From positions 1 through 45,585 of the IMG/VR virus record IMGVR_UViG_648276647_000019: a stretch of DNA of 45,585 bases; one strand, given 5' to 3'. The position numbers and the translations under genes were made by a program. The notes below the pieces were generated by a model, which saw only the letters and a program-made list of their open reading frames with translations, did no database searches and was not told where the DNA came from. Positions 7,834-44,083 of the stretch are shown one piece after another. The stretch is from a virus. Its lineage: Duplodnaviria; Heunggongvirae; Uroviricota; Caudoviricetes. Position 1 is the first letter of the stretch; each line of letters opens with the position of its first letter.

Positions 7834-8717
7834 GTATGGAGCTGATGGTTAAGATGATCATGAGCAAACCAGTAATGATTGATTCTGATAATTCTGGGCG
7901 TTATATTGTTCTGGCAGCGGCAAAATCCGTTGCCGGGATTGGCGTCCTGAAATTGATTACTGAGCATAACCGCGCTCATGCGGTTTTTTCGTGTCATGAG
8001 CATTGCTACGCCCAAATTATGGTGGGGCGTACAGGGCCGACTTCGGTCGGGCCGGGTTCGGTAGTCTCCGGTAACGCCAACCCTGTACGTCTCACCACCT
8101 CTGTGATTGGCGTCCCATGTGGTGAGTTTTCTGAAAAACTGACTACCGGGGCTGTCACCATGACTACTCTCCCAACCCTCACTCAACCTGAAATTGCCAT
8201 CGTTGATGGTCAGGCTGTTACATCTTCTTTGGCTGTTGCTGACTTCTTCTCTAAACGTCATGACGATGTACTGAAAAAGATCCGCATTTTGGATTGTTCT
8301 CCAGAGTTTTGTGCCCGCAATTTTGCGGAGACATCAATTTTGGTACACCAGCCCAACGGCGGTACTCGCAAACTTCCTTGCTACCACATCACCCGCGACG
8401 GCTTCGCGTTCCTGGCAATGGGCTTCACTGGCAAACGTGCAACCCAGTTCAAGGAGGCATACATCAATGCCTTTAACCAGATGGAAAAGGCGCTGATCGG
8501 AAAGGTTGATAATTCATGTGTCGCGCACAATGCCCATGTTGTTTACCTCTACATGGCTGAAATTCACCGCGTCTGGTTAGAACAACTTTATCCGATGCTG
8601 GTTTCAGCTCAGTCGCCGCTGGCTTCATCACTCTACGACTACATCAACGATGGTGTATTCGTTGCCGGGCTGGTGGACTCGGAACTGAACGAAAAGCATA
8701 AGGAGGTGCGTAAGTGA
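7830..8717 (+). CDS. Rha-family phage regulatory/antirepressor protein (295 aa; Rha domain from internal Met at 8160)
   Basis: Strong RBS GGAGGTG before ATG 7830, overlapping the upstream stop; Rha-like core plus a C-terminal domain shared with copy 2. Confidence 0.7.
   Translation: MSMELMVKMIMSKPVMIDSDNSGRYIVLAAAKSVAGIGVLKLITEHNRAHAVFSCHEHCYAQIMVGRTGPTSVGPGSVVSGNANPVRLTTSVIGVPCGEFSEKLTTGAVTMTTLPTLTQPEIAIVDGQAVTSSLAVADFFSKRHDDVLKKIRILDCSPEFCARNFAETSILVHQPNGGTRKLPCYHITRDGFAFLAMGFTGKRATQFKEAYINAFNQMEKALIGKVDNSCVAHNAHVVYLYMAEIHRVWLEQLYPMLVSAQSPLASSLYDYINDGVFVAGLVDSELNEKHKEVRK
7880..8159 (+). repeat. Structured repeat unit 3 (near-identical to unit 1)
   Basis: Terminator-like hairpin about 7966-7992; the UUCG hairpin carries a compensatory pair change relative to unit 1 (CAAC/GUUG to CGAC/GUCG). 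Confidence 0.6.
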
Positions 8718-9655
8718 GCACTAAATTAACCGGCTATGTATGGGATGGTTGCGCTGCGTCAGGCATGAAGTTATCCAGCGTGGCAATTATGGCCCGCCTG
8801 GCTGATTTCAGTAATGACGAAGGTGTGTGCTGGCCATCAATTGAAACCATTGCCCGTCAGATTGGCGCGGGGATGAGTACCGTCAGAACGGCTATCGCAC
8901 GGCTGGAAGCAGAAGGCTGGTTAACGCGTAAGGCGCGTCGCCAGGGTAACCGCAATGCGTCGAATGTTTATCAGCTTAACGTTGCGAAGCTTCAGGCAGC
9001 GGCATTTTCTCAACTGTCAGATTCTGACCCGTCAAAATCTGACGCATCAAAATCTGACCCGTCAAAATTTGATGCGTCGAAATCTGGCAAAAAAGCGGGT
9101 TTTCACCCGTCAGAATCTGGCGGGGATCCGTCAGTAAAATCAAAACATGATCCGTCAGATAAAAAACCTTCTCGTCCGGACGCTTCGCAACCGGACACGC
9201 AGACGGATGAACAGGATTTTTTAACTCGCCATCCTGATGCGGTTGTATTCAGCCCTAAAAAGCGCCAGTGGGGGACGCAGGATGATTTGACCTGCGCACA
9301 GTGGCTCTGGAAAAAAATCATCGCCCTGTACGAGCAGGCCGCCGAATGTGACGGCGAGGTGGTTCGTCCCAAAGAACCTAACTGGACAGCCTGGGCAAAC
9401 GAAATTCGCCTGATGTGTGTGCAGGATGGTCGTACTCACAAACAAATCTGCGAGATGTACAGCCGCGTCAGCCGCGATCCGTTCTGGTGCCGTAACGTGC
9501 TCAGCCCGTCGAAGTTGCGGGAAAAATGGGATGAGCTTTCCCTGCGCTTATCGCCGTCCGTCAGCACGCACACAGAAAAACGTGAAGACCCGTACTTCAA
9601 AGCCAGTTACGACAACGTGGACTACAGCCAGATCCCGGCAGGATTCAGGGGGTGA
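8714..9655 (+). CDS. Replication initiator protein (O-like, winged-HTH N-terminus) with internal iteron origin
   Basis: N-terminal HTH-like segment typical of phage replication initiators; direct DNA repeats embedded in the gene. Confidence 0.7.
   Translation: MSTKLTGYVWDGCAASGMKLSSVAIMARLADFSNDEGVCWPSIETIARQIGAGMSTVRTAIARLEAEGWLTRKARRQGNRNASNVYQLNVAKLQAAAFSQLSDSDPSKSDASKSDPSKFDASKSGKKAGFHPSESGGDPSVKSKHDPSDKKPSRPDASQPDTQTDEQDFLTRHPDAVVFSPKKRQWGTQDDLTCAQWLWKKIIALYEQAAECDGEVVRPKEPNWTAWANEIRLMCVQDGRTHKQICEMYSRVSRDPFWCRNVLSPSKLREKWDELSLRLSPSVSTHTEKREDPYFKASYDNVDYSQIPAGFRG
9015..9170. repeat. Candidate phage replication origin: 15-bp iterons (TCTGACCCGTCAAAA-like, at least four direct copies plus inverted copies) followed by an A-rich tract
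   Basis: Direct repeats read off the sequence at 9021-9080 with related CCGTCAGA motifs to about 9160; an origin inside the initiator gene is the lambda O/ori arrangement. Confidence 0.55.
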
Positions 9656-9657
9656 TC

Positions 9658-10146
9658 ATGAGTCTGTTAAATGACGTTCAGAAATTCATTGAAGCCCATC
9701 CGGGGTGCACTTCCGGAGACATTGCGGATGCTTTTGCTGGTTACTCACGGCAGCGCGTTCTGCAGTCAGCAAGCAAGTTACGTCAGAGTGGGCGTGTGGC
9801 TCACCGTTGTGAAGGAGATACACGCAGACATTTCCCGCGCCTGACTGAGAGAGCGCAGGAGCCGGAACCACAACCAGTTCGAGAAACCAGACCTGTGCGC
9901 AATTTCTATGTCGGCACTAACGATCCCCGGGTGATTTTGTGCCTGACCCGCCAGGCTGAAGAACTGGAGTCAAGGGGCTTATACCGTCGTGCTGCAACCG
10001 TGTGGATGGCGGCATTCCGTGAAAGCCACTCCCAGCCAGAACGAAACAATTTTCTGACGCGTCGTGAGCGGTGCTTACGGAAAAGCAGCAAGCGCGCTGC
10101 ATCGGGTGAAGAGTGGTATCTGTCAGGGAATTACGTGGGGGCTTAA
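9658..10146 (+). CDS. Hypothetical regulator, possibly PerC-family transcriptional activator-like (162 aa)
   Basis: ATG at 9658 after GGGGGTG; motif ESRGLYRRAATVWMAAF resembles the PerC/Pch core as I recall it. Confidence 0.4.
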   Translation: MSLLNDVQKFIEAHPGCTSGDIADAFAGYSRQRVLQSASKLRQSGRVAHRCEGDTRRHFPRLTERAQEPEPQPVRETRPVRNFYVGTNDPRVILCLTRQAEELESRGLYRRAATVWMAAFRESHSQPERNNFLTRRERCLRKSSKRAASGEEWYLSGNYVGA

Positions 10147-10799
10147 TGAGTAATAAATATTGCCAGGCGCTGGTGGAACTGCGGAACAAACCAGCCCATG
10201 AACTGAAGGAAGTGGGCGATCAGTGGCGCACGCCGGACAACATTTTCTGGGGAATTAACACCCTGTTTGGCCCGTTTGTTCTGGATCTGTTTACTGACGG
10301 TGATAACGCCAAATGTGCCGCGTATTACACGGCGGAAGATAACGCGCTGGCGCATGACTGGTCAGAACGTCTTGCGGAGCTTAAAGGTGCTGCCTTTGGT
10401 AATCCCCCATACAGCCGCGCCAGTCAGCATGAGGGGCAATACATCACCGGCATGCGTTACATCATGAAGCATGCCAGTGCCATGCGTGATAAAGGCGGGC
10501 GCTATGTTTTCCTGATCAAAGCTGCCACCAGCGAAGTGTGGTGGCCGGAAGATGCAGATCATATTGCTTTTATTCGCGGGCGTATTGGTTTTGAACTGCC
10601 TGTCTGGTTTATCCCGAAAGACGAGAAGCAGGTGCCGACAGGAGCTTTCTTCGCTGGTGCTATTGCTGTTTTCGATAAGACCTGGAAGGGACCGGCAATC
10701 AGCTACATCGGGCGCGATGAACTTGAGGCATGTGGTGAGGCGTTTCTGGTGCAGGTTCGCCAGCAGGCGGAAAAACTGGTCAGGGAGATGGCGGCATGA
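10146..10799 (+). CDS. Phage DNA N6-adenine methyltransferase (Dam-like)
   Basis: NPPY catalytic motif (GNPPYSR); ATG overlaps upstream stop (TAATG). Confidence 0.8.
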   Translation: MSNKYCQALVELRNKPAHELKEVGDQWRTPDNIFWGINTLFGPFVLDLFTDGDNAKCAAYYTAEDNALAHDWSERLAELKGAAFGNPPYSRASQHEGQYITGMRYIMKHASAMRDKGGRYVFLIKAATSEVWWPEDADHIAFIRGRIGFELPVWFIPKDEKQVPTGAFFAGAIAVFDKTWKGPAISYIGRDELEACGEAFLVQVRQQAEKLVREMAA

Positions 10800-11122
10800 T
10801 GACATTAACTCAATGCCAGCAGCAGGTGCTGGATATGCTGATTTCTTATCAGAAAGAACGTGGCTTCCCGCCAACCAATCAGGAGGTGGCAACCATGCTG
10901 GGATACCGTTCGGTGAATGCAGCGGTGGAGCATCTTCGCGCACTGGAGAAAAAAGGCGTCATCACGATAAAGCGTGGCGTGGCCCGGGGGATAACGCTTC
11001 ATACCGCGGTGAAGGACGACGACAGCGAGGCGGTCGGGATTATCCGCTCACTGCTTGCCGGTGAGGAAAACGCCAGGCTGCGTGCAACCCACTGGTTACA
11101 TGAGAGGGGCCTTAAGGTATGA
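10796..11122 (+). CDS. LexA N-terminal DNA-binding-domain-only protein (108 aa; no S24 peptidase domain)
   Basis: Translation aligns by eye with the LexA winged-HTH domain (QQQVLDML...PPT.QEVA..LGYRS.NAA.EHL.AL..KGVI); the ORF ends before any peptidase domain. Confidence 0.7.
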   Translation: MMTLTQCQQQVLDMLISYQKERGFPPTNQEVATMLGYRSVNAAVEHLRALEKKGVITIKRGVARGITLHTAVKDDDSEAVGIIRSLLAGEENARLRATHWLHERGLKV

Positions 11123-11490
11123 AGCTGATCCTGCCTTTCCCGCCCAGCGTGAACACGTACTGGCGACACCCCAACAAAGGGGCGTTTGCAGGTAAGAGCC
11201 TGATAAGCGCGGCGTGTGCAGCAATAGTTGAGCAGTTACGTCGTCTGCCAAAACCAACGTCGGCACCAGCTTCAGTGGAGATCGTGTTGTTTCCTCCGGA
11301 TAACCGGATCCGCGATCTGGACAACTATAACAAGGCGCTGTTTGACGCCCTGACCCACGCGGGTGTGTGGGAAGACGACAGTCAGGTGAAAAGAATGCTG
11401 GTGGAGTGGGGACCGGTTATCCCGGAAGGGAAGGTCGAGATCACTATCAGTAAGTACGAAAAAGCGAGTTGCAAATTAGCAACTCGGTAA
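11119..11490 (+). CDS. rusA: Holliday junction resolvase RusA
   Basis: Characteristic RusA core (DLDNYNKALFDALTHAGVWEDDSQV). Confidence 0.9.
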   Translation: MKLILPFPPSVNTYWRHPNKGAFAGKSLISAACAAIVEQLRRLPKPTSAPASVEIVLFPPDNRIRDLDNYNKALFDALTHAGVWEDDSQVKRMLVEWGPVIPEGKVEITISKYEKASCKLATR

Positions 11491-11536
11491 CTGAATTGAG
11501 CAACACCCTAAATTGGGGTATTACCTCGTTAAAGAT

Positions 11537-11558
11537 ACTGTATTTATGAACAGTGTAT
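11537..11558. promoter_or_regulatory. LexA (SOS) box upstream of the KilA-N antirepressor-like gene
   Basis: TACTGTATTTATGAACAGTGTA matches the CTG-N10-CAG SOS-box pattern; about 85 nt upstream of the ATG at 11642. Confidence 0.6.
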
Positions 11559-11641
11559 CCTTGATAACTATTAAAAATCGCAGTAAGTTCATCTTGCATC
11601 AACGAAAAGGGAGTGCAGTCCCGAAATTTGTGGAGAAACCA

Positions 11642-12457
11642 ATGAATCAGTTGCTTGTAATTGATGGCGTTTCTGTGCGCCAGTACTTTGAATCTAACTA
11701 CTGTCTTAACGACCTTCAGAAAGCTGCTCTTCTTGCCGCTGGTGAGAATCGCTCCCCCCGTTCGCTGGAAGTTCACGAGTTTATGCGTCGTCCTGAAACG
11801 AAGGCTCTTGTGGAATTACTGGAAGAAGAAACTACGGGAGATTCCCGTAGTATTCCTGTCATCACCATTCAGGGGCGCAATGGTGGGACGTATGTCTGTA
11901 AAGAGCTGGTCTATGCATATGCAATGTGGATCAGCCCGGCATTCAGCTTAAAAGTGATACGTACTTTTGATGCGCTTCATAGTTCATCACCAGAAGAAAC
12001 CACATCCGATAAAATTAAATCCGGGGTCATTCTGCTTGAATCAGCAGCAAAGACTCTAAATCTGTCAAACTCCTCGAAACTTGGTGCATACCAGAAATTA
12101 TCAAAGGTAGCTGGTCTTCCTGAACTTATGCCGATCTATGCCATTGATGCCCCTGCTGATGCGCCAGATGGTTCAAGCCGCCCTACGCTGTCGCTGAGTG
12201 CACTGCTGAAACAGTATGGTATCCGCCTGACGGCTAATCAGGCATATCACCAGATGGCGAAGCTGGGGATCGTTGAACAACGTGAACGATACAGCCGTAC
12301 CGCGATTAACAACATCAAAAAATTCTGGTCGCTGACGGCGAAAGGCTGCATGTTCGGCAAGAACATCACCAGTCCTGCAAATCCGCGCGAGACGCAGCCG
12401 CACTTCTTCGAATCCCGATTCCCTGAGCTGTTAAAGCTGCTCGATACTGTTCACTGA
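11642..12457 (+). CDS. KilA-N domain protein, putative SOS-controlled antirepressor (271 aa from ATG 11642)
   Basis: KilA-N-like N-terminal motif (TYVCKELVYAYAMWISPAFSLKVI); GGAGAAA RBS; the ORF-track start at 11513 would include the LexA box. Confidence 0.7.
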   Translation: MNQLLVIDGVSVRQYFESNYCLNDLQKAALLAAGENRSPRSLEVHEFMRRPETKALVELLEEETTGDSRSIPVITIQGRNGGTYVCKELVYAYAMWISPAFSLKVIRTFDALHSSSPEETTSDKIKSGVILLESAAKTLNLSNSSKLGAYQKLSKVAGLPELMPIYAIDAPADAPDGSSRPTLSLSALLKQYGIRLTANQAYHQMAKLGIVEQRERYSRTAINNIKKFWSLTAKGCMFGKNITSPANPRETQPHFFESRFPELLKLLDTVH

Positions 12458-12472
12458 TGGGAGGTGTGGAGC

Positions 12473-12988
12473 ATGAGAATTACACCACCTCATCTGCAGT
12501 CTGTTTTATCCAGGGTTAAACGCTTTGTTGAACGAATGCCGGAAGGCGCAACACTGACCCAGATATCAAAGAAAGTGCAGGCGTACAGTCTGCTGAATAA
12601 AAGGGATAAGGAGATACTCATTGGCATTATCCGCGACAGTGGACTTCTGGTCGTTGCGAATGATGGAAGAACTACAACGCTACATCATCCTAAATTTGGA
12701 CATCAGGCAGTAAATAGTGAAATACCAGTAAAAACAGAGGAACCCGTTGTGATTAAAAAGACCGTTACTCCGGACGAATTGCGCAGGCACGCTGAGGAGC
12801 TGATCAGAGCTGCGGAAGAAGCAGAGAAGAAATTTAATGATCGTGCGGAAATTAAAAAGCAACTGGATCCTCTGAAACTGGAAATCCTCCAAGCGTATGG
12901 AATGGCAAGTCGTAAATTTGATGAGTTTGTTGATGCTATGGCGGATATGGGGAAAGCGGTACAGAAACTGAAACAGATTGCGCTGTGA
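12473..12988 (+). CDS. Hypothetical phage protein (171 aa)
   Basis: ATG at 12473 after GGGAGGTG; coiled-coil-like Glu/Lys-rich C-terminus. Confidence 0.5.
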   Translation: MRITPPHLQSVLSRVKRFVERMPEGATLTQISKKVQAYSLLNKRDKEILIGIIRDSGLLVVANDGRTTTLHHPKFGHQAVNSEIPVKTEEPVVIKKTVTPDELRRHAEELIRAAEEAEKKFNDRAEIKKQLDPLKLEILQAYGMASRKFDEFVDAMADMGKAVQKLKQIAL

Positions 12989-12997
12989 GGTTCTACG

Positions 12998-13987
12998 TTG
13001 AGAGCACTACTGACCCCTGAAATTGCCCCACGTATGGGGATCGTATTGTTCAGACCAGGTTCAGAGCTGATGCCCCTGTTTATGCAGGGGCGTGTCCTGC
13101 TGGAGCCTGAGCCGGAACGTTATTCATCTTTCGCCAGTGGTGCCGTTCCGGCGGCATCACAACCGCTGGCGGATGATCCTGTCGTTCGGGCCGTGTTCCG
13201 CAATGAGGCAGTGATCCGTCGTGCTGGTGGGGTGGAATGTCTTGAAAGCTGGTTACTTCGTGAAAAAGGCTGCCAGTGGCCCCATTCCGACTGGCACAGC
13301 GAGAACATGACCACAATGCGACACGCGCCGGGCGCAATCCGTCTGTGCTGGCACTGCGATAACCAGTTGCGCGATCAGTTCACGGAACGGCTGGAATCAA
13401 TGGCAACGGATAACTGTGCCCGCTGGGTGTTATCTGTTGTGCGTCGGGATCTCGGTTTTGATGATAGTCACGTTGTGACAATGCCGGAACTGTGCTGGTG
13501 GCTGATTCGTAATGACCTGGCGGATGCCTTACCGGAAAGTGCAGCCCGTAAGGCACTGAGATTACCGAAGCCTGTTGTGCCGTCTGTCACCCGGGAAAGT
13601 GACCTTGTGCCTTCGGTTCCTGCCACCAGCATCATCCAGGATAAGGCGAAAAAGGTGCTGGCGCTGAAAGTGGATCCGGAGTCGCCGGAGTCTTTTATGT
13701 TACGCCCAAAACGTCGCCGCTGGGTTAATGAAAAGTACACGCGCTGGGTTAAGACACAGCCGTGTGCATGTTGTGGAAAGCCCGCTGATGATCCCCACCA
13801 CCTGACAGGTCACGGTCAGGGTGGAATGGGAACAAAAGCGCATGACCTCTTTGTGTTGCCTTTGTGCAGAAACCATCACGACGAGCTACATGGGGATACC
13901 GTGGCATTTGAAGAGAAGTATGGCTCCCAGCTGGAGCTGATATTTCGTTTTATCGATCGCGCGCTGGCGATTGGTGTGCTAGCCTGA
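12998..13987 (+). CDS. DUF968-like protein with C-terminal Cys/His (HNH-like) motif
   Basis: C-terminus CACCGKPADDPHHL...CRNHHDELHG; start codon uncertain (TTG 12998 with GAGG, or ATG 13034/13070). Confidence 0.5.
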   Translation: MRALLTPEIAPRMGIVLFRPGSELMPLFMQGRVLLEPEPERYSSFASGAVPAASQPLADDPVVRAVFRNEAVIRRAGGVECLESWLLREKGCQWPHSDWHSENMTTMRHAPGAIRLCWHCDNQLRDQFTERLESMATDNCARWVLSVVRRDLGFDDSHVVTMPELCWWLIRNDLADALPESAARKALRLPKPVVPSVTRESDLVPSVPATSIIQDKAKKVLALKVDPESPESFMLRPKRRRWVNEKYTRWVKTQPCACCGKPADDPHHLTGHGQGGMGTKAHDLFVLPLCRNHHDELHGDTVAFEEKYGSQLELIFRFIDRALAIGVLA

Positions 13988-14004
13988 TTTTGTGGAGAAA
14001 ATTA

Positions 14005-14370
14005 ATGCGAGATATTCAGATGGTTCTTGAACGCTGGGGCGCGTGGGCGGCAAGTGATAGCTCTGGCGTTGACTATTCACATATAGCAGCTGGTTTTAAG
14101 GGACTTATCCCGCAGACGGGTAAAACACGAATTTCTTGTACAGATGATGATGCTCTTATCATTGAGGGCTGCCTCGCTCTCCTTAAGAAGAAAAAACCGT
14201 ACGAGCATTCTCTAATTGTGGCTCATTACCTGTATGGCATCTCGAAACGGAAGATCGCAAAGGCTCGTAAAAAAGATGAGAAATTAATACGTATCGAGAT
14301 ACAGATGGCTGAAGGGTTTATTGATGGCTGTCTTTCTATGTTGGGCGTGAAGCTTGAAATGGATAGCTAG
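14005..14370 (+). CDS. Q: Late-gene antiterminator Q
   Basis: Small basic protein in the canonical position between nin-region genes and the lysis cassette; ATG 14005 after GGAGAAA (ORF-track start at 13990 is TTG). Family call by position and resemblance. Confidence 0.65.
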   Translation: MRDIQMVLERWGAWAASDSSGVDYSHIAAGFKGLIPQTGKTRISCTDDDALIIEGCLALLKKKKPYEHSLIVAHYLYGISKRKIAKARKKDEKLIRIEIQMAEGFIDGCLSMLGVKLEMDS

Positions 14371-17468: not shown

Positions 17469-18038
17469 ATGAATATGATGACCGTGCCATTCCACGGCGC
17501 AGAGCTTTATGTTGTCAACCACAACGGCGAGCCGTACACCCCAATGAAACCTATCGTTGAGGGAATGGGTATGACCTGGCAGTCTCAACACCGCAAGTTG
17601 ATGGAGAGATTTAAGACCTGCATCATCGAAATGATGATGCAGCTCCCCGGTGATACTCAGCGTCGTCTGGTTATCTGTCTTGCTTTACGTAAACTTGCAG
17701 GTTGGCTGCAAACCATCAGCCCTAACAAAGTCCGCCCTGAAATCCGCGACAAGGTAATCCAGTATCAGGAAGAGTGTGACGATGTGCTCTATGAATACTG
17801 GACTAAAGGTTTTGTCGTTAATCCCCGTCGAATGAGCGTGATGGAGGAACTCAACCAGGCATGTGCTGACATGAAAAGGGATAAAAACATCGCCAGTCTG
17901 TATGGTGCAGGGTTAAACGAATGGAAATCAGTCAAAGCGGCTCATGTATCAAAAATTCGTGCGCTGGTGGATGAGGCAAACTTGCTGATCGGCTTTGTCA
18001 TGGCGGATACAGGGAAGGGGAAAACCACCGGGACATGA
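17469..18038 (+). CDS. Phage antirepressor (Ant-type, P22 AR N-terminal domain-like)
   Basis: N-terminus MNMMTVPFHGAELYVVNHNGEPYTPMKPIVEGMGMTWQSQHRKL matches the antirepressor N-terminal pattern as I recall it. Confidence 0.7.
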   Translation: MNMMTVPFHGAELYVVNHNGEPYTPMKPIVEGMGMTWQSQHRKLMERFKTCIIEMMMQLPGDTQRRLVICLALRKLAGWLQTISPNKVRPEIRDKVIQYQEECDDVLYEYWTKGFVVNPRRMSVMEELNQACADMKRDKNIASLYGAGLNEWKSVKAAHVSKIRALVDEANLLIGFVMADTGKGKTTGT

Positions 18039-23874: not shown

Positions 23875-25463
23875 AACGCGCGCCAGTATTGATTGACGTG
23901 AACGGCAACCCCCTTCGCGGGAGTATGAGCTATACAGGTGGCGGGACTGGTTTTGGCGGGCAGATGATCGACTGGATTCCACCGGTACAAAGTGTGGATG
24001 CAGCGCTGTTACCGTCACTTCGTCTGGGTAATGCACGCGCGGATGACCTGGTGCGCAATAACGGGATTGCGGCTAATGCAGTGTCCCTGCATAAGGATCA
24101 TATCGTCGGACACATGTTCCTGATCAGCTATCGCCCCGACTGGCGCTGGCTGGGGATGCGTGAAACGGCAGCGAAAAGTTTTATAGATGAGGTTGAAGCG
24201 GCCTGGTCGGAATATGCAGAAGGGATGTTTGGCGAGATCGACGTGGAAGGTAAACGCACCTTTACCGAATTTATTCGTGAAGGTGTGGGCGTTCATGCTT
24301 TTAACGGTGAAATTTTTGTGCAGCCGGTCTGGGAGGTGGAGACCACACAACTGTTTCGTACGCGCTTTAAAGCGGTAAGTCCGAAGCGGGTGGACACGCC
24401 GGGACATGCCACCGGGAATCGCTTTCTGCGTGCGGGGGTGGAAACTGACCGCAATGGACGGGCGCTGGCTTATCATATCTGTGAAGATGACTGGCCGTCA
24501 TCAGGTACTGGTGGCTGGGTGCGGGTGCCCGGAGAACTGCCCACGGGGCGTCCGGGGATGCTGCATATTTTTGAACCTGTGGAGGACGGACAGACCCGTG
24601 GAGCCAATCAGTTTTACAGCGTCATGGAACGGCTGAAGATGCTGGATTCCCTGCAGGCCACGCAGCTTCAGTCGGCCATCGTGAAGGCGATGTATGCAGC
24701 CACAATCGAAAGCGAACTGGATACCGATAAGGCGTTTGAGTATATCGCTGGTGCGCCGGAGGAGCAGAAGGATAATCCATTGATTTATATGCTGATGAAG
24801 TATTCGCGCTGGTATGACACGAATAACGTGACGCTGGGTGGCGTCAAAATTCCGCACCTTTTCCCCGGTGATGCGCTGAACCTGCAGACTGCGCAGGATT
24901 CAGACAATGGATTTTCGGCGCTTGAACAGGCGCTGCTGCGGTATATCGCCGCCGGTCTTGGCGTTTCCTACGAACAGTTGTCCCGTGATTACTCGAAGGT
25001 CAGTTATTCAAGTGCCCGCGCATCCGCCAATGAGTCGTGGCGCTATTTTATGGGGCGGCGAAAATTTATTGCGGCCCGGCTGGCCACGCAGATGTTTTCC
25101 TGCTGGCTGGAAGAGGCACTTCTTCGGGGGATTATTCGTCCGCCACGGGCGCGTTTTGATTTTTATCAGGCGCGATCAGCCTGGTCACGGGCAGAGTGGA
25201 TTGGTGCCGGAAGAATGGCCATTGACGGGCTCAAGGAGGTTCAGGAATCAGTGATGCGCATTGAGGCCGGACTGAGCACGTATGAGAAAGAGCTGGCGCT
25301 GATGGGCGAGGATTATCAGGACATTTTCCGCCAGCAGGTCAGGGAATCTGCAGAGCGGCAAAAAGCCGGACTCTCACGTCCGGTGTGGATAGCGCAGGCG
25401 TATCAGCAGCAGATAGCGGAGAGTCGCAGGCCGGAAGAGGAGACAACACCACGTGAGACGTAA
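23871..25463 (+). CDS. B: Portal protein B
   Basis: Strong similarity to lambda gpB (GNARADDLVRNNG, FEPVEDGQTRGAN, LLRYIAAGLGVSYEQLSR); GTG start overlapping the W stop. Confidence 0.95.
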   Translation: MKRAPVLIDVNGNPLRGSMSYTGGGTGFGGQMIDWIPPVQSVDAALLPSLRLGNARADDLVRNNGIAANAVSLHKDHIVGHMFLISYRPDWRWLGMRETAAKSFIDEVEAAWSEYAEGMFGEIDVEGKRTFTEFIREGVGVHAFNGEIFVQPVWEVETTQLFRTRFKAVSPKRVDTPGHATGNRFLRAGVETDRNGRALAYHICEDDWPSSGTGGWVRVPGELPTGRPGMLHIFEPVEDGQTRGANQFYSVMERLKMLDSLQATQLQSAIVKAMYAATIESELDTDKAFEYIAGAPEEQKDNPLIYMLMKYSRWYDTNNVTLGGVKIPHLFPGDALNLQTAQDSDNGFSALEQALLRYIAAGLGVSYEQLSRDYSKVSYSSARASANESWRYFMGRRKFIAARLATQMFSCWLEEALLRGIIRPPRARFDFYQARSAWSRAEWIGAGRMAIDGLKEVQESVMRIEAGLSTYEKELALMGEDYQDIFRQQVRESAERQKAGLSRPVWIAQAYQQQIAESRRPEEETTPRET

Positions 25464-42675: not shown

Positions 42676-42924
42676 TTAGTGAACAAACCACTCGTCAGCA
42701 GACTCCCAGGTATCTTTCAGAGTCTCCTGAACAAATGTTTTTGCAGAATCCTTATCTGCTGTGCGTGTAACAGAAAGCCCATCATTGCTGGTGGCTTTTA
42801 CGATCACTTCTACATCGTCATAACGCTTACTGATGCGCCGAGTTAATTCTTCCTTTAACGCATCCACAGCACCGTTTGGCATTTTAGTCATTTTCTCTTT
42901 GGCTATGCAGATTTCAATACGCAT
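42676..42924 (-). CDS. dinI: DNA damage-inducible protein I homologue (DinI family)
   Basis: 82 aa with DinI-like ends (MRIEICIAK...[11 protein letters not shown]); tandem LexA boxes upstream. Confidence 0.9.
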
Positions 42925-42937
42925 AAAAATCCCTCTA

Positions 42938-42985
42938 TACTGTGTTTGTATACAGTGTTATTTTTATCTGTATAAATAAACAGTG
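42938..42985. promoter_or_regulatory. Two tandem LexA (SOS) boxes upstream of dinI
   Basis: TACTGTGTTTGTATACAGTG (42938-42957) and CTGTATAAATAAACAG (42968-42983), both CTG-N10-CAG. Confidence 0.65.
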
Positions 42986-44083
42986 TCAAGAGGTCTTGTT
43001 TCTGCTCTTTTGGAGTTCTTCAAAACGATTATGTAAAGATTTCGGATACAGTTCGGTATATACCTGCCATAGCACGTTTAATGAACGATGCCCTGTAACT
43101 TGAGCGACTTCCTCAATACTAAAACCAGCCTCAAATAAGCGACTTGCCCCTTCTCTACGCAAATCATGGTATCGCAGATCTTTAATACCTAATTTGCTTC
43201 TTACCCTCTGAAATCCTGCGGTAACAGAAGTGCTGTTATATGGAAAAATGAATTCTGATTTTTTTGGTTGTCGCTGGACGATATCCCAGGCTTCCCCAAG
43301 CAAGGCAACTTTCATATGGTTACCTTCCTTTTTACGTGGATCTTTCCTATCTCTTACTAGTATAGATTTTTGTTCTTGGTCGAGATCTTCCCATCGTAAC
43401 CGGCATAATTCTCCGATTCGCATACAGGACCACACAGAAAATTTGAGGATATCAACGAACGGAATTTTTGAGCATTTATGAGTAGATCGTTGTTGAAGGC
43501 CTTCAATGAGCATGTCCAGTTCATCAGATGCTGGTCTACGATTACGACGGTTTGATTTACCAATCAAACCGAGTTTAAGTAGATATGGACGAGCGCTTTT
43601 CGCCGGGTTTGATGTGTAATTGATTCCGTATACAGGTTTTGCCGCATCCAGAACACTGCCAAGATAACTAACATCGTGGCTGACTGTTGCTGGGCCTGCA
43701 CCAGCGTTGTTTCTTAGCCTGCAATGTTCAATTACGTCATTTTCTGTCAGTTCAGATAGTTTGATCGCGGATATGTCACTATCCATAAGCAGTTCCAGCA
43801 CATATCTTTTAGTACGGCCTGCTTTACCTCCGGCATTTGGGTCATTTAAATATTTGTGTAGTAAGTCACGGACTGTAAGTCCATCAACAGCATTTGATGA
43901 TGGAATGCCATATAGATCTAATTCCATCACTTTCTGTGCGCCCCATGTTTTGGCATGAGCATGTTTAGGGAATGTTTTGCTTTCCCTGTAAGTGATAACA
44001 CCTTTTTCTTTGATAATCACATTACAGCGATAGCGTGGTGTGCCATCGGATTTTAGTCGTTTCTCTATGTTATAGTACGCCAT
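42986..44083 (-). CDS. int: Tyrosine-type site-specific integrase (dusA-associated)
   Basis: 365 aa with tyrosine-recombinase catalytic-domain motifs (R...HDLRR...Y near the C-terminus); abuts the dusA 5' end. Confidence 0.95.
   Translation of the reverse strand: MAYYNIEKRLKSDGTPRYRCNVIIKEKGVITYRESKTFPKHAHAKTWGAQKVMELDLYGIPSSNAVDGLTVRDLLHKYLNDPNAGGKAGRTKRYVLELLMDSDISAIKLSELTENDVIEHCRLRNNAGAGPATVSHDVSYLGSVLDAAKPVYGINYTSNPAKSARPYLLKLGLIGKSNRRNRRPASDELDMLIEGLQQRSTHKCSKIPFVDILKFSVWSCMRIGELCRLRWEDLDQEQKSILVRDRKDPRKKEGNHMKVALLGEAWDIVQRQPKKSEFIFPYNSTSVTAGFQRVRSKLGIKDLRYHDLRREGASRLFEAGFSIEEVAQVTGHRSLNVLWQVYTELYPKSLHNRFEELQKSRNKTS

Follow-up and report, generated by a model that had tools for sequence, protein, structure and literature searches.

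A predicted SOS-responsive promoter cassette upstream of kilA-N, and a LexA-domain-only protein, in an SfIV-like lambdoid phage genome

The SOS operon of the Salmonella prophages Gifsy-1, -2 and -3 (gfoA/gftA/gfhA; Lemire et al., 2011) has a LexA box and a private promoter to the right of the replication genes. The box, 1.3 kb downstream of those genes and following terminator-like palindromes, drives dinI, a gene for a small antirepressor and irsA, and cleavage of LexA suffices to switch it on, with no dependence on the phage repressor (PMC3121763). We describe here a locus that can be likened to it, from sequence alone, in the IMG/VR virus record IMGVR_UViG_648276647_000019, a lambdoid, SfIV-like phage genome of 45,585 nucleotides (the whole of which is called the window below). 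It consists of a gene for a KilA-N domain protein (kilA-N), a 150-bp spacer before it that carries an SOS (LexA) box and a predicted promoter and, further upstream, a gene for a 108-aa protein with the DNA-binding domain of LexA and nothing of its protease.

As in the Gifsy prophages, the box lies between the replication genes and Q, with a (predicted) promoter of its own, and there is a palindrome at the end of the upstream gene. The differences are in payload (a 271-aa KilA-N protein in the window, DinI and a small antirepressor in Gifsy), in the phage repressor (of the self-cleaving S24 type in the window, whereas Gifsy repressors are not cleaved), and in dinI, which in the window stands apart at the other end, as a monocistronic locus that has two boxes of its own. 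A single phage gene held off by host LexA, which would be the likeness to kilA-N, is represented also by Tum of coliphage 186 and AntC of N15, as these are cited in the account of Gifsy (PMC3121763); neither has sequence or domain similarity to KilA-N, and Tum has a DinI-like half, of which KilA-N has none.

For the LexA-like protein the closest precedent, by analogy, is gp6 of GIL01, a tectivirus of Bacillus thuringiensis (Fornelos et al., 2018; PMC6182141), which likewise has the LexA winged helix-turn-helix (HTH) without the protease/dimerisation domain, and comes from a phage that also uses host LexA boxes, as the window phage may do with its predicted boxes. The likeness is one of domain description, not of sequence comparison; host phylum and phage type are different, and the 108-aa protein has in addition a conserved two-helix tail and keeps the recognition residues of Escherichia coli LexA. 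LexA(Ind-) proteins and the N-terminal cleavage fragment of LexA bind DNA, are resistant to RecA and can keep SOS genes repressed; these are host gene products, whereas the 108-aa protein is encoded by a phage gene in an early operon and has its own C-terminal tail where LexA has its dimerisation domain. By type, the finding is a probable LexA-controlled prophage locus, and with it a counterpart, on the Gram-negative side, of the truncated LexA homologues known from phages. Literature searches, within the library that could be searched, found nothing connecting KilA or KilA-N with LexA boxes, and no description of a LexA-domain protein of lambdoid phages.

The reading that we favour is that the 150-bp spacer is an SOS-responsive promoter cassette inside a delayed-early (nin-type) operon. 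In a lysogen, host LexA would sit on the box at 11536-11555, which abuts a predicted sigma-70 promoter; RecA-stimulated cleavage would remove it, and kilA-N would be transcribed from the private promoter, probably together with the genes downstream as far as Q. Such a route would need neither cleavage of the cI repressor nor read-through from pR, which would be the sole route in relatives without the cassette. The 108-aa protein, once made, would most likely bind SOS boxes of the CTGT type, both the phage's own three and those of the host, and RecA-stimulated cleavage should be unable to inactivate it because it has no S24 domain. We put the probability of this explanation as a whole, including SOS-box binding by the 108-aa protein, at roughly 55%; LexA control of kilA-N, taken by itself, is likely.

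The SOS box and the predicted kilA-N promoter

The elements of the locus run as follows, in window coordinates:

10796-11122, plus strand: LexA-like gene ('LexN'; 108 aa, LexA DNA-binding domain only; Pfam LexA_DNA_bind, phrog_362)
11119-11490, plus strand: rusA, Holliday-junction resolvase gene (Pfam PF05866, E=1.3e-13), between the LexA-like gene and kilA-N
11465-11486, no strand assigned: palindrome at the 3' end of rusA, CGAGTTGC AAATTA GCAACTCG (-13.5 kcal/mol, z=-3.25, RNA fold)
After 11490 and before 11642: rusA/kilA-N spacer, 150 bp
11536-11555, no strand assigned: SOS (LexA) box TACTGTATTTATGAACAGTG, exact CTGT-N8-ACAG, best matrix score in the window
11561-11566, plus strand: predicted -35, TTGATA (with the -10, the top-scoring sigma-70 matrix pair of the upstream 190 nt, at 10.7 bits and with a spacer of 17 nt)
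11584-11589, plus strand: predicted -10, TAAGTT (predicted start near 11596)
11609-11622, plus strand: leader hairpin GGGA-GTGCAG-TCCC, with covarying stem and conserved apical loop
11632-11635, plus strand: Shine-Dalgarno sequence GGAG within a GTGGAGA motif, 6 nt before the ATG, kept in nearly all loci
11642-12457, plus strand: kilA-N, KilA-N domain protein, 271 aa (Pfam PF04383, phrog_129)

The box is part of the 22-mer TACTGTATTTATGAACAGTGTA at 11536-11557, which ends 84 nt before the ATG of kilA-N, and its CTGT-N8-ACAG core (CTGTATTTATGAACAG, 11538-11553) agrees with the LexA operator consensus, including the AT-rich centre. A well-formed SOS box had been predicted here before; the box itself stands, as the top-scoring site, and its coordinates needed moving by one base (from 11537-11558). 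CTGT-N8-ACAG occurs five times in the window against 0.57 expected, a number reached in none of 100 shuffles. An approximate LexA weight matrix places the 11536 box first (5.6), then the two dinI boxes (6.1 and 7.0) and, at a distance, the next site (11.75); the matrix rests on an informal set of SOS boxes, and these scores are therefore relative, with their ranking alone to be trusted. As was also predicted, kilA-N (PF04383, E=1.2e-15) is two genes downstream of the LexA-like gene, with rusA between.

The promoter was called by a looser sigma-70 weight-matrix scan combined with positional conservation. A -35/-10 pair is present at a fixed place in most of the aligned spacers, with the -10 ending about 58-65 nt before the ATG, and takes the form TTGATA or TTGAAA, 17 nt, and TAAGTT, TAATGT, TAAGGT or TATATT across loci. 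Relative to the start predicted in the window, the centre of the box is at -50.5, and 5 bp lie between its end and the -35. An alternative promoter that would put the box at +4 to +23 (TTGAGC/TATTAC, 11497-11525) was rejected: it scores 5.9 bits only, and that stretch cannot be aligned in relatives. How far might a transcript from the predicted promoter extend? The genes from kilA-N to Q (12464-14370 downstream of kilA-N) are tightly packed, and the four terminator-like sites found between kilA-N and Q (1.9 +/- 1.5 in shuffled sequence) include no convincing one. Because no convincing intrinsic terminator intervenes up to Q, the transcript could reach that gene, and we infer co-transcription of kilA-N with genes as far as Q.

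The string dam/LexA-like gene/rusA/kilA-N was found in 54 phage records, among them SfIV, SfV, SfII, Stx2a and Stx2c phages and mEp460, and the 150-bp spacer in five of them (two of the Shigella phage SfIV, VIT_AJPSC and two of PhiR49_1). In SfV, SfII, Stx2a_1447 and mEp460 the gap between rusA and kilA-N is 19 bp and has no box, and the product of kilA-N has the same C-terminal part behind another version of the KilA-N N-terminal domain; there, kilA-N is just another gene of the early rightward operon. Spacers of the window type are present in 186 of 5426 complete E. coli genomes, including Shiga toxin-producing (STEC) strains, and in 41 IMG/VR contigs; the spacer is unannotated in every E. 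coli genome among the matches listed. Within this set, the 41 contigs included, the box is invariant, and the adjoining leader has substitutions and an 11-bp indel.

Covariance models of Rfam, run over 11400-11720, matched nothing at E values up to 10. From its -10 region through its leader (GCAGTAAGTTC...CGAAAA-hairpin, 11584-11622), the kilA-N promoter resembles the coding 3' end of rusA (TCAGTAAGTACGAGAAAAC-hairpin) in short-spacer loci (L002-L006; locus numbers with the prefix L are ours), and the long spacer has the look of a second copy of the rusA end that has gained a -35 and an SOS box.

The palindrome at 11465-11486 is terminator-like, and is followed by a T-run on the minus strand alone (CTTTTTCG). 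It could therefore be asked whether the box controls instead a minus-strand transcript, for a small RNA or peptide, that ends at 11486-11465. The hairpin and its one-sided T-run speak for such a transcript; however, no plausible -35/-10 pair could be seen by eye on that strand in 11490-11640, there is no open reading frame (ORF) or Rfam family, and the palindrome sits at the position at which short-spacer phages have the sense-strand leader hairpin of kilA-N. We rejected this candidate as most improbable.

Recurrence of the box across species

Fifty loci with KilA-N relatives were compared, each species being represented by a single genome and the range extending from Phytobacter and Pantoea as far as Proteus and Gilliamella, and 41 of the loci were classed by the gap upstream of kilA-N as long (at least about 64 bp, n=23) or short (16-42 bp, n=18). 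An SOS-like site (score <=14) was present within 170 nt of the kilA-N start in 15 of the 23 long-gap loci and in none of the 18 short-gap ones, whereas shuffled spacers gave a mean of 0.29 (maximum 2) and the background chance per 170 nt in the same loci was 1.4%. A check that needed no matrix gave the same picture, exact CTG-N10-CAG being found in seven of the 23 long-gap loci against 1.5 expected (Poisson P=9e-4, which, like the other P values here, is indicative only, the loci not being phylogenetically independent).

The sequence of the box varies by genus (e.g. TACTGGTTACACGATCAGTA, AACTGTTCAAACATACAGGT, GGCTGTTTTAATATCCAGTA and GATTGTATATTTATACAGTC), and thus it is the motif itself that is conserved, beyond the DNA surrounding it. 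Its position relative to the predicted promoter also varies, in three ways: centred at -50.5 or -49.5 (the window, L008, L013, L015, L024, L025, L027 and L028), over the -10 at -7.5 (L011, L021, L042 and L044), or over the -35 region at -30.5 to -20.5 (L020, L023, L037 and L019). The best reason to think that LexA control of kilA-N is selected is that the box, for all its changes of position, has remained beside one and the same promoter. The predicted wiring of kilA-N to LexA is accordingly well supported, by a near-consensus box, a promoter conserved in position, and boxes that recur upstream of homologues in many genera.

Could the box nevertheless be without function now, a chance or decaying palindrome beside a constitutive 'moron' promoter? 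In several lineages the left half-site is degraded (to GTG, ATG or ATA), and in the window the box does not overlap the predicted core promoter, as might be expected on that explanation. The site is far better than chance, however; it is invariant in the 41 contigs in spite of leader substitutions and the 11-bp indel, and it has been retained at three positions relative to the promoter. A functionless box therefore seems very unlikely.

Another explanation concerns the group in which the box is near -50. Where the context is known in species other than that of the window, all six loci of this group have the LexA-like gene about 800 nt upstream, as against one of ten loci with the box elsewhere, which in most means over the core promoter (Fisher P=9e-4, uncorrected for shared ancestry). 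It is conceivable that the box of this allele serves chiefly the phage LexA-domain protein, and that this activates the kilA-N promoter from -50.5 once host LexA has gone, a switch with two LexA proteins for which there is a precedent in GIL01, where gp6, a truncated LexA homologue, activates a late promoter (PMC6182141). Besides the association just described, the constant distance from box to -35, maintained though the sequence between diverges, would fit such an arrangement. Against it, the six loci form one alignable lineage, so that the association may be mere linkage; phages without a box before kilA-N frequently have the LexA-like gene too (SfV, SfII, Stx2a_1447 and mEp460); the predicted promoter is not obviously weak (10-12 bits); and the box fits the host LexA consensus better than an activator site would need to. 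We regard activation from -50.5 as a tentative and somewhat doubtful possibility. A covariation between residue 45 of the LexA-like protein (Glu/Asp) and the left half-site (CTG/GTG) was considered and set aside: it is suggestive in about four lineages, which are too few, and the change is confined to one of the half-sites.

The window has one other predicted LexA-controlled locus, at its far end:

42676-42924, minus strand: dinI-like gene behind tandem boxes, monocistronic, ending at a hairpin and T-run
42938-42957 and 42966-42985, no strand assigned: two tandem SOS boxes, near-consensus (matrix scores 6.1 and 7.0)
42986-44083, minus strand: integrase gene, its stop codon abutting the tandem boxes

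To judge from its boxes and neighbours, this is an ordinary SOS locus of lambdoid prophages. A small antirepressor gene of the Gifsy type was looked for after dinI, and there is none, a hairpin and T-run being there instead. In SfV the sole strong SOS box, TACTGTAAAAATAAACAGTG (L137, 34170-34189), is at the 5' end of the DNA methyltransferase gene orf48, downstream of Q and its terminator. Phages with the LexA-like protein have SOS boxes, at differing places. A 20-mer identical to the SfV box is present about 3 kb downstream of kilA-N in L009 (at 7156) and L026 (at 6951), with similar boxes in L046 and L055, and very strong SOS boxes (e.g. TACTGTTTTTATATACAGTA) are found in several related prophages described as having no box before kilA-N, some 3.3-3.7 kb upstream of that gene and close to what is presumably the immunity or early region (L018 at 371, L016 at 270, L043 at 647 and L008 at 356).

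The LexA-domain-only protein

The 108-aa protein covers the whole of the Pfam LexA_DNA_bind model (PF01726, 1-65 of 65, E=6.4e-19), ends at residue 108 and has no Pfam match to Peptidase_S24. Against the NCBIfam lexA model TIGR00498 it scores 69.9 bits, where the cut-off is 110.95, and matches model positions 1-91 of 203 alone. It aligns with residues 1-69 of E. coli LexA (1lea, E=6.6e-16), and its AlphaFold model superposes on DNA-bound LexA (3JSO) at 1.2 A over 66-67 residues with 51-52% identity. The claim of a LexA N-terminal winged HTH without the S24 domain, made originally from an alignment by eye, is thereby confirmed. The protein has neither the Ser119/Lys156 dyad nor the Ala84-Gly85 cleavage site; it is not a LexA repressor proper, and fits the type of truncated phage LexA homologue exemplified by gp6 of GIL01. 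Of the LexA residues that contact DNA (Ser39, Asn41, Ala42, Glu44 and Glu45; PMC3091678), four are identical (Ser39, Asn41, Ala42 and Glu45). From these features it is plausible that the protein could occupy SOS boxes while being itself uncleavable.

In the AlphaFold model (mean pLDDT 80) the winged HTH (residues 1-68) is followed by a flexible linker of low confidence (69-75) and a C-terminal two-helix hairpin (75-103), its helices, 75-87 and 93-103, being confidently predicted. The two-helix tail is kept in homologues down to 45% identity, with the pattern DEAI..LR.L..GD..ARE.A..FLE.RG. On the model, the tail is probably a dimerisation element; the weak fold matches of the protein, to regulators of the MntR/DtxR type, which pair a winged helix with a helical domain, are compatible with this and are no proof of it.

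The LexA-like gene is far more abundant than the cassette, single clusters at 90% identity containing 2527 and 782 sequences, and it is present in Stx2a-converting phages. Is its proximity to the box significant? Among 80 IMG/VR loci with divergent homologues, kilA-N is downstream in 48, with a box in some and not in others. The gene is common where kilA-N has no box, as in SfV, SfII, Stx2a_1447 and mEp460, and many prophages with a box over the core promoter do not have the LexA-like gene. Thus, the LexA-like gene is a module independent of the box: the two are adjacent, as the original prediction had it, and the link that it drew between them is weak, each occurring without the other.

A more elaborate scheme can be imagined, in which the boxes of kilA-N and dinI are occupied in the lysogen by host LexA and, after DNA damage has destroyed both LexA and cI, an uncleavable dimer of the phage LexA-domain protein, made from the early operon, takes over the SOS boxes, activating the kilA-N promoter from -50.5 towards Q and repressing those boxes that overlap a core promoter (in the host SOS regulon, the phage dinI locus and the antirepressor genes of rival prophages); as Stx2a phages encode the same protein, it would be a brake of phage origin on the SOS response while Shiga-toxin phages develop. 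Such a hand-over is speculative, and we think it unlikely.

The KilA-N protein, its leader and its neighbours

The product of kilA-N matches PF04383 over residues 10-114 (E=1.2e-15; 57.7 bits, gathering cut-off 23.8). Alignment and AlphaFold modelling show a KilA-N domain (1-114), a middle part formed by two long helices and, at the C-terminus, a conserved domain in which the motif GKNITSPANPRETQPHFFES occurs; this last helix/strand domain weakly resembles a winged helix in the model. There are 2729 homologues. PHROGs assigns the protein to the generic phrog_129 ('transcriptional regulator'), an NCBIfam search gave no match, and a fold search of the PDB gave none with E<0.1, the weak resemblances being to winged helices (PadR, MarR and DnaD-N) and Mbp1. 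We infer that KilA-N has two domains, binds nucleic acid and belongs to the early lytic programme.

The original prediction saw in KilA-N an antirepressor under LexA control which, in the manner of Tum or GfoA/GftA, would inactivate cI and so provide a second induction circuit parallel to autocleavage of cI. It is true that an SOS box precedes kilA-N, that the gene has the genomic position of the Gifsy SOS operon, that it is the only protein-coding gene besides dinI behind a strong box in the window, and that dinI, which ends at a terminator, is followed by no small gene of the Gifsy type. Nevertheless, Pfam and PHROGs detect in the protein none of the antirepressor domains ANT, KilA-C, P22_AR, Tum and DinI-like (a negative that does not extend to direct comparison with the small antirepressors of Gifsy, for which the libraries used have no profile), and there is no fold match either. 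In about half of its relatives the same C-terminal two-thirds of the protein is encoded by an ordinary early gene with no box. The cI repressor has an S24 domain, and such a repressor needs no antirepressor. Moreover, the cI of the window (100% identical to that of SfIV) is 99.6% identical to that of SfV (tblastn), and the kilA-N alleles of these two phages are different, that of SfV being without a box. Finally, kilA-N almost always has a DUF968/HNH gene after it and a conserved leader hairpin before it, an arrangement that indicates a lytic-cycle function. The antirepressor part of the prediction is not supported, and we consider it unlikely.

Several points weigh against the SOS cassette as we read it, besides the shared ancestry of the loci and the relative nature of the matrix scores. 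A stricter built-in promoter scan of 10700-12600 found no promoter, and the promoter and the start near 11596 are predictions. The box of the window is upstream of the -35 and not over the core, so that repression may be weak or absent in this allele; LexA at -50.5 may only disturb upstream contacts of the polymerase. Some long-spacer lineages have degraded boxes (L007, L009, L098, L099 and L147). Phages with the same cI do without the cassette, which cannot therefore be needed for induction. As to the LexA-like protein, Glu44 is replaced by Val and Arg28 by Asn, an isolated LexA N-terminal domain is known to bind DNA weakly, and dimerisation through the tail is a guess.

The leader hairpin is 20-40 nt upstream of the kilA-N start and has a variable stem and an apical loop that is almost always (G/U)UGCAG. 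It is found in long- and short-gap alleles alike, from Escherichia to Gilliamella and across the Enterobacterales (L002-L006, L007-L055, L097-L099 and L113-L126); in SfV-type phages it is inside the 3' end of rusA (GGCGG GTGCAG CCGCC), and in Proteus and Morganella the same place is taken by a hairpin with the loop UGUACGG or UAUACGG. Among 23 distinct leader sequences all five inner pairs show compensatory changes, and 93% of stem cells are paired, a figure that falls to 28-46% if the partner is displaced by one to three columns (presence of a stem was the basis on which the sequences were selected, so that the paired fraction is inflated, though the diversity of pair types is not). The sense strand has G.U pairs (GGCGG/CTGCC), which point to a structure in RNA. 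The hairpin matched no Rfam family, and its stability is not unusual.

The 11-bp indel already mentioned is in the interval between hairpin and ribosome-binding site (window 11623-11630, compared with L001/L005/L057), among near-identical copies of the spacer: SfIV, PhiR49_1 and 32 contigs have the sequence CTCGTGGATAA, the window and six contigs do not, and its deletion takes away the outer stem (CGA/TCG) of the leader structure. A second hairpin, CGACC TTGCAG GGTCG (3060-3075, minus strand), is 21 nt upstream of the ATG (at 3039) of a 120-aa early-left gene (2677-3039), a homologue of SfV orf32; the counterpart hairpin in SfV (L137) is at about 24640-24660 on the minus strand. It is preceded (3077-3092, minus strand) by TTTGTGGAGAAACCAA, the same 16-mer as the ribosome-binding region of kilA-N at 11627-11642. 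When a covariance model was run over the window and SfV, this hairpin was the top match outside the training set, with an E value of 0.14 only; its close relatives vary too little for covariation to be assessed.

The remaining genes that have a bearing on the locus are as follows:

4080-4754, minus strand: cI repressor gene, S24-type (Pfam Peptidase_S24, E=1.5e-26)
5637-7421, plus strand: 594-aa ORF with an Ash domain and two Rha stretches
7830-8717, plus strand: 295-aa ORF with an Ash domain and one Rha stretch
8714-9655, plus strand: O-like replication gene
9652-10146, plus strand: PerC-like gene
10113-10799, plus strand: dam, phage Dam-type DNA N6-adenine methyltransferase gene (Pfam PF05869, E=1.1e-45)
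12464-12988, plus strand: 174-aa ORF, with no Pfam match
12998-13987, plus strand: DUF968/HNH gene (Pfam)
13990-14370, plus strand: antiterminator gene Q (Pfam)
17469-18038: P22_AR_N antirepressor-like gene, between the lysozyme and Rz genes

Two further regulators had been predicted correctly, the S24-type cI and an Ant-type antirepressor gene between the lysis genes; the 'three Rha-like genes', however many domains they contribute, come down to two ORFs, which between them have three Rha domains. The stop and start codons of dam and the LexA-like gene, and those of the LexA-like gene and rusA, overlap as ATGA, from which it seems that the three genes are translationally coupled. A DUF968/HNH gene (YdfU-type) follows kilA-N in nearly all loci (L007-L056, at about +790 to +850 from its start), which makes of these genes a conserved pair just upstream of Q. 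The 174-aa ORF has a homologue at the same place in just two of the 50 species-representative loci (L007 and L015) and no match in Pfam or PADLOC; its insertion between kilA-N and the DUF968/HNH gene in so few loci is moron-like behaviour. The PADLOC defence models gave nothing meaningful for the LexA-like protein, KilA-N, the 174-aa ORF, the DUF968 protein or two minus-strand ORFs after Q.

LexA-controlled loci decide the lytic switch of some prophages, and DNA-damaging antibiotics act through them. If the cassette feeds Q, it would provide a route from DNA damage to late-gene expression that is independent of cI. If an uncleavable protein that binds SOS boxes is made early in induction, it could shut off the SOS response of the host or silence neighbouring prophages. 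The leader hairpin, for its part, is a candidate for a new cis-regulatory RNA of a very large family of phage genes.

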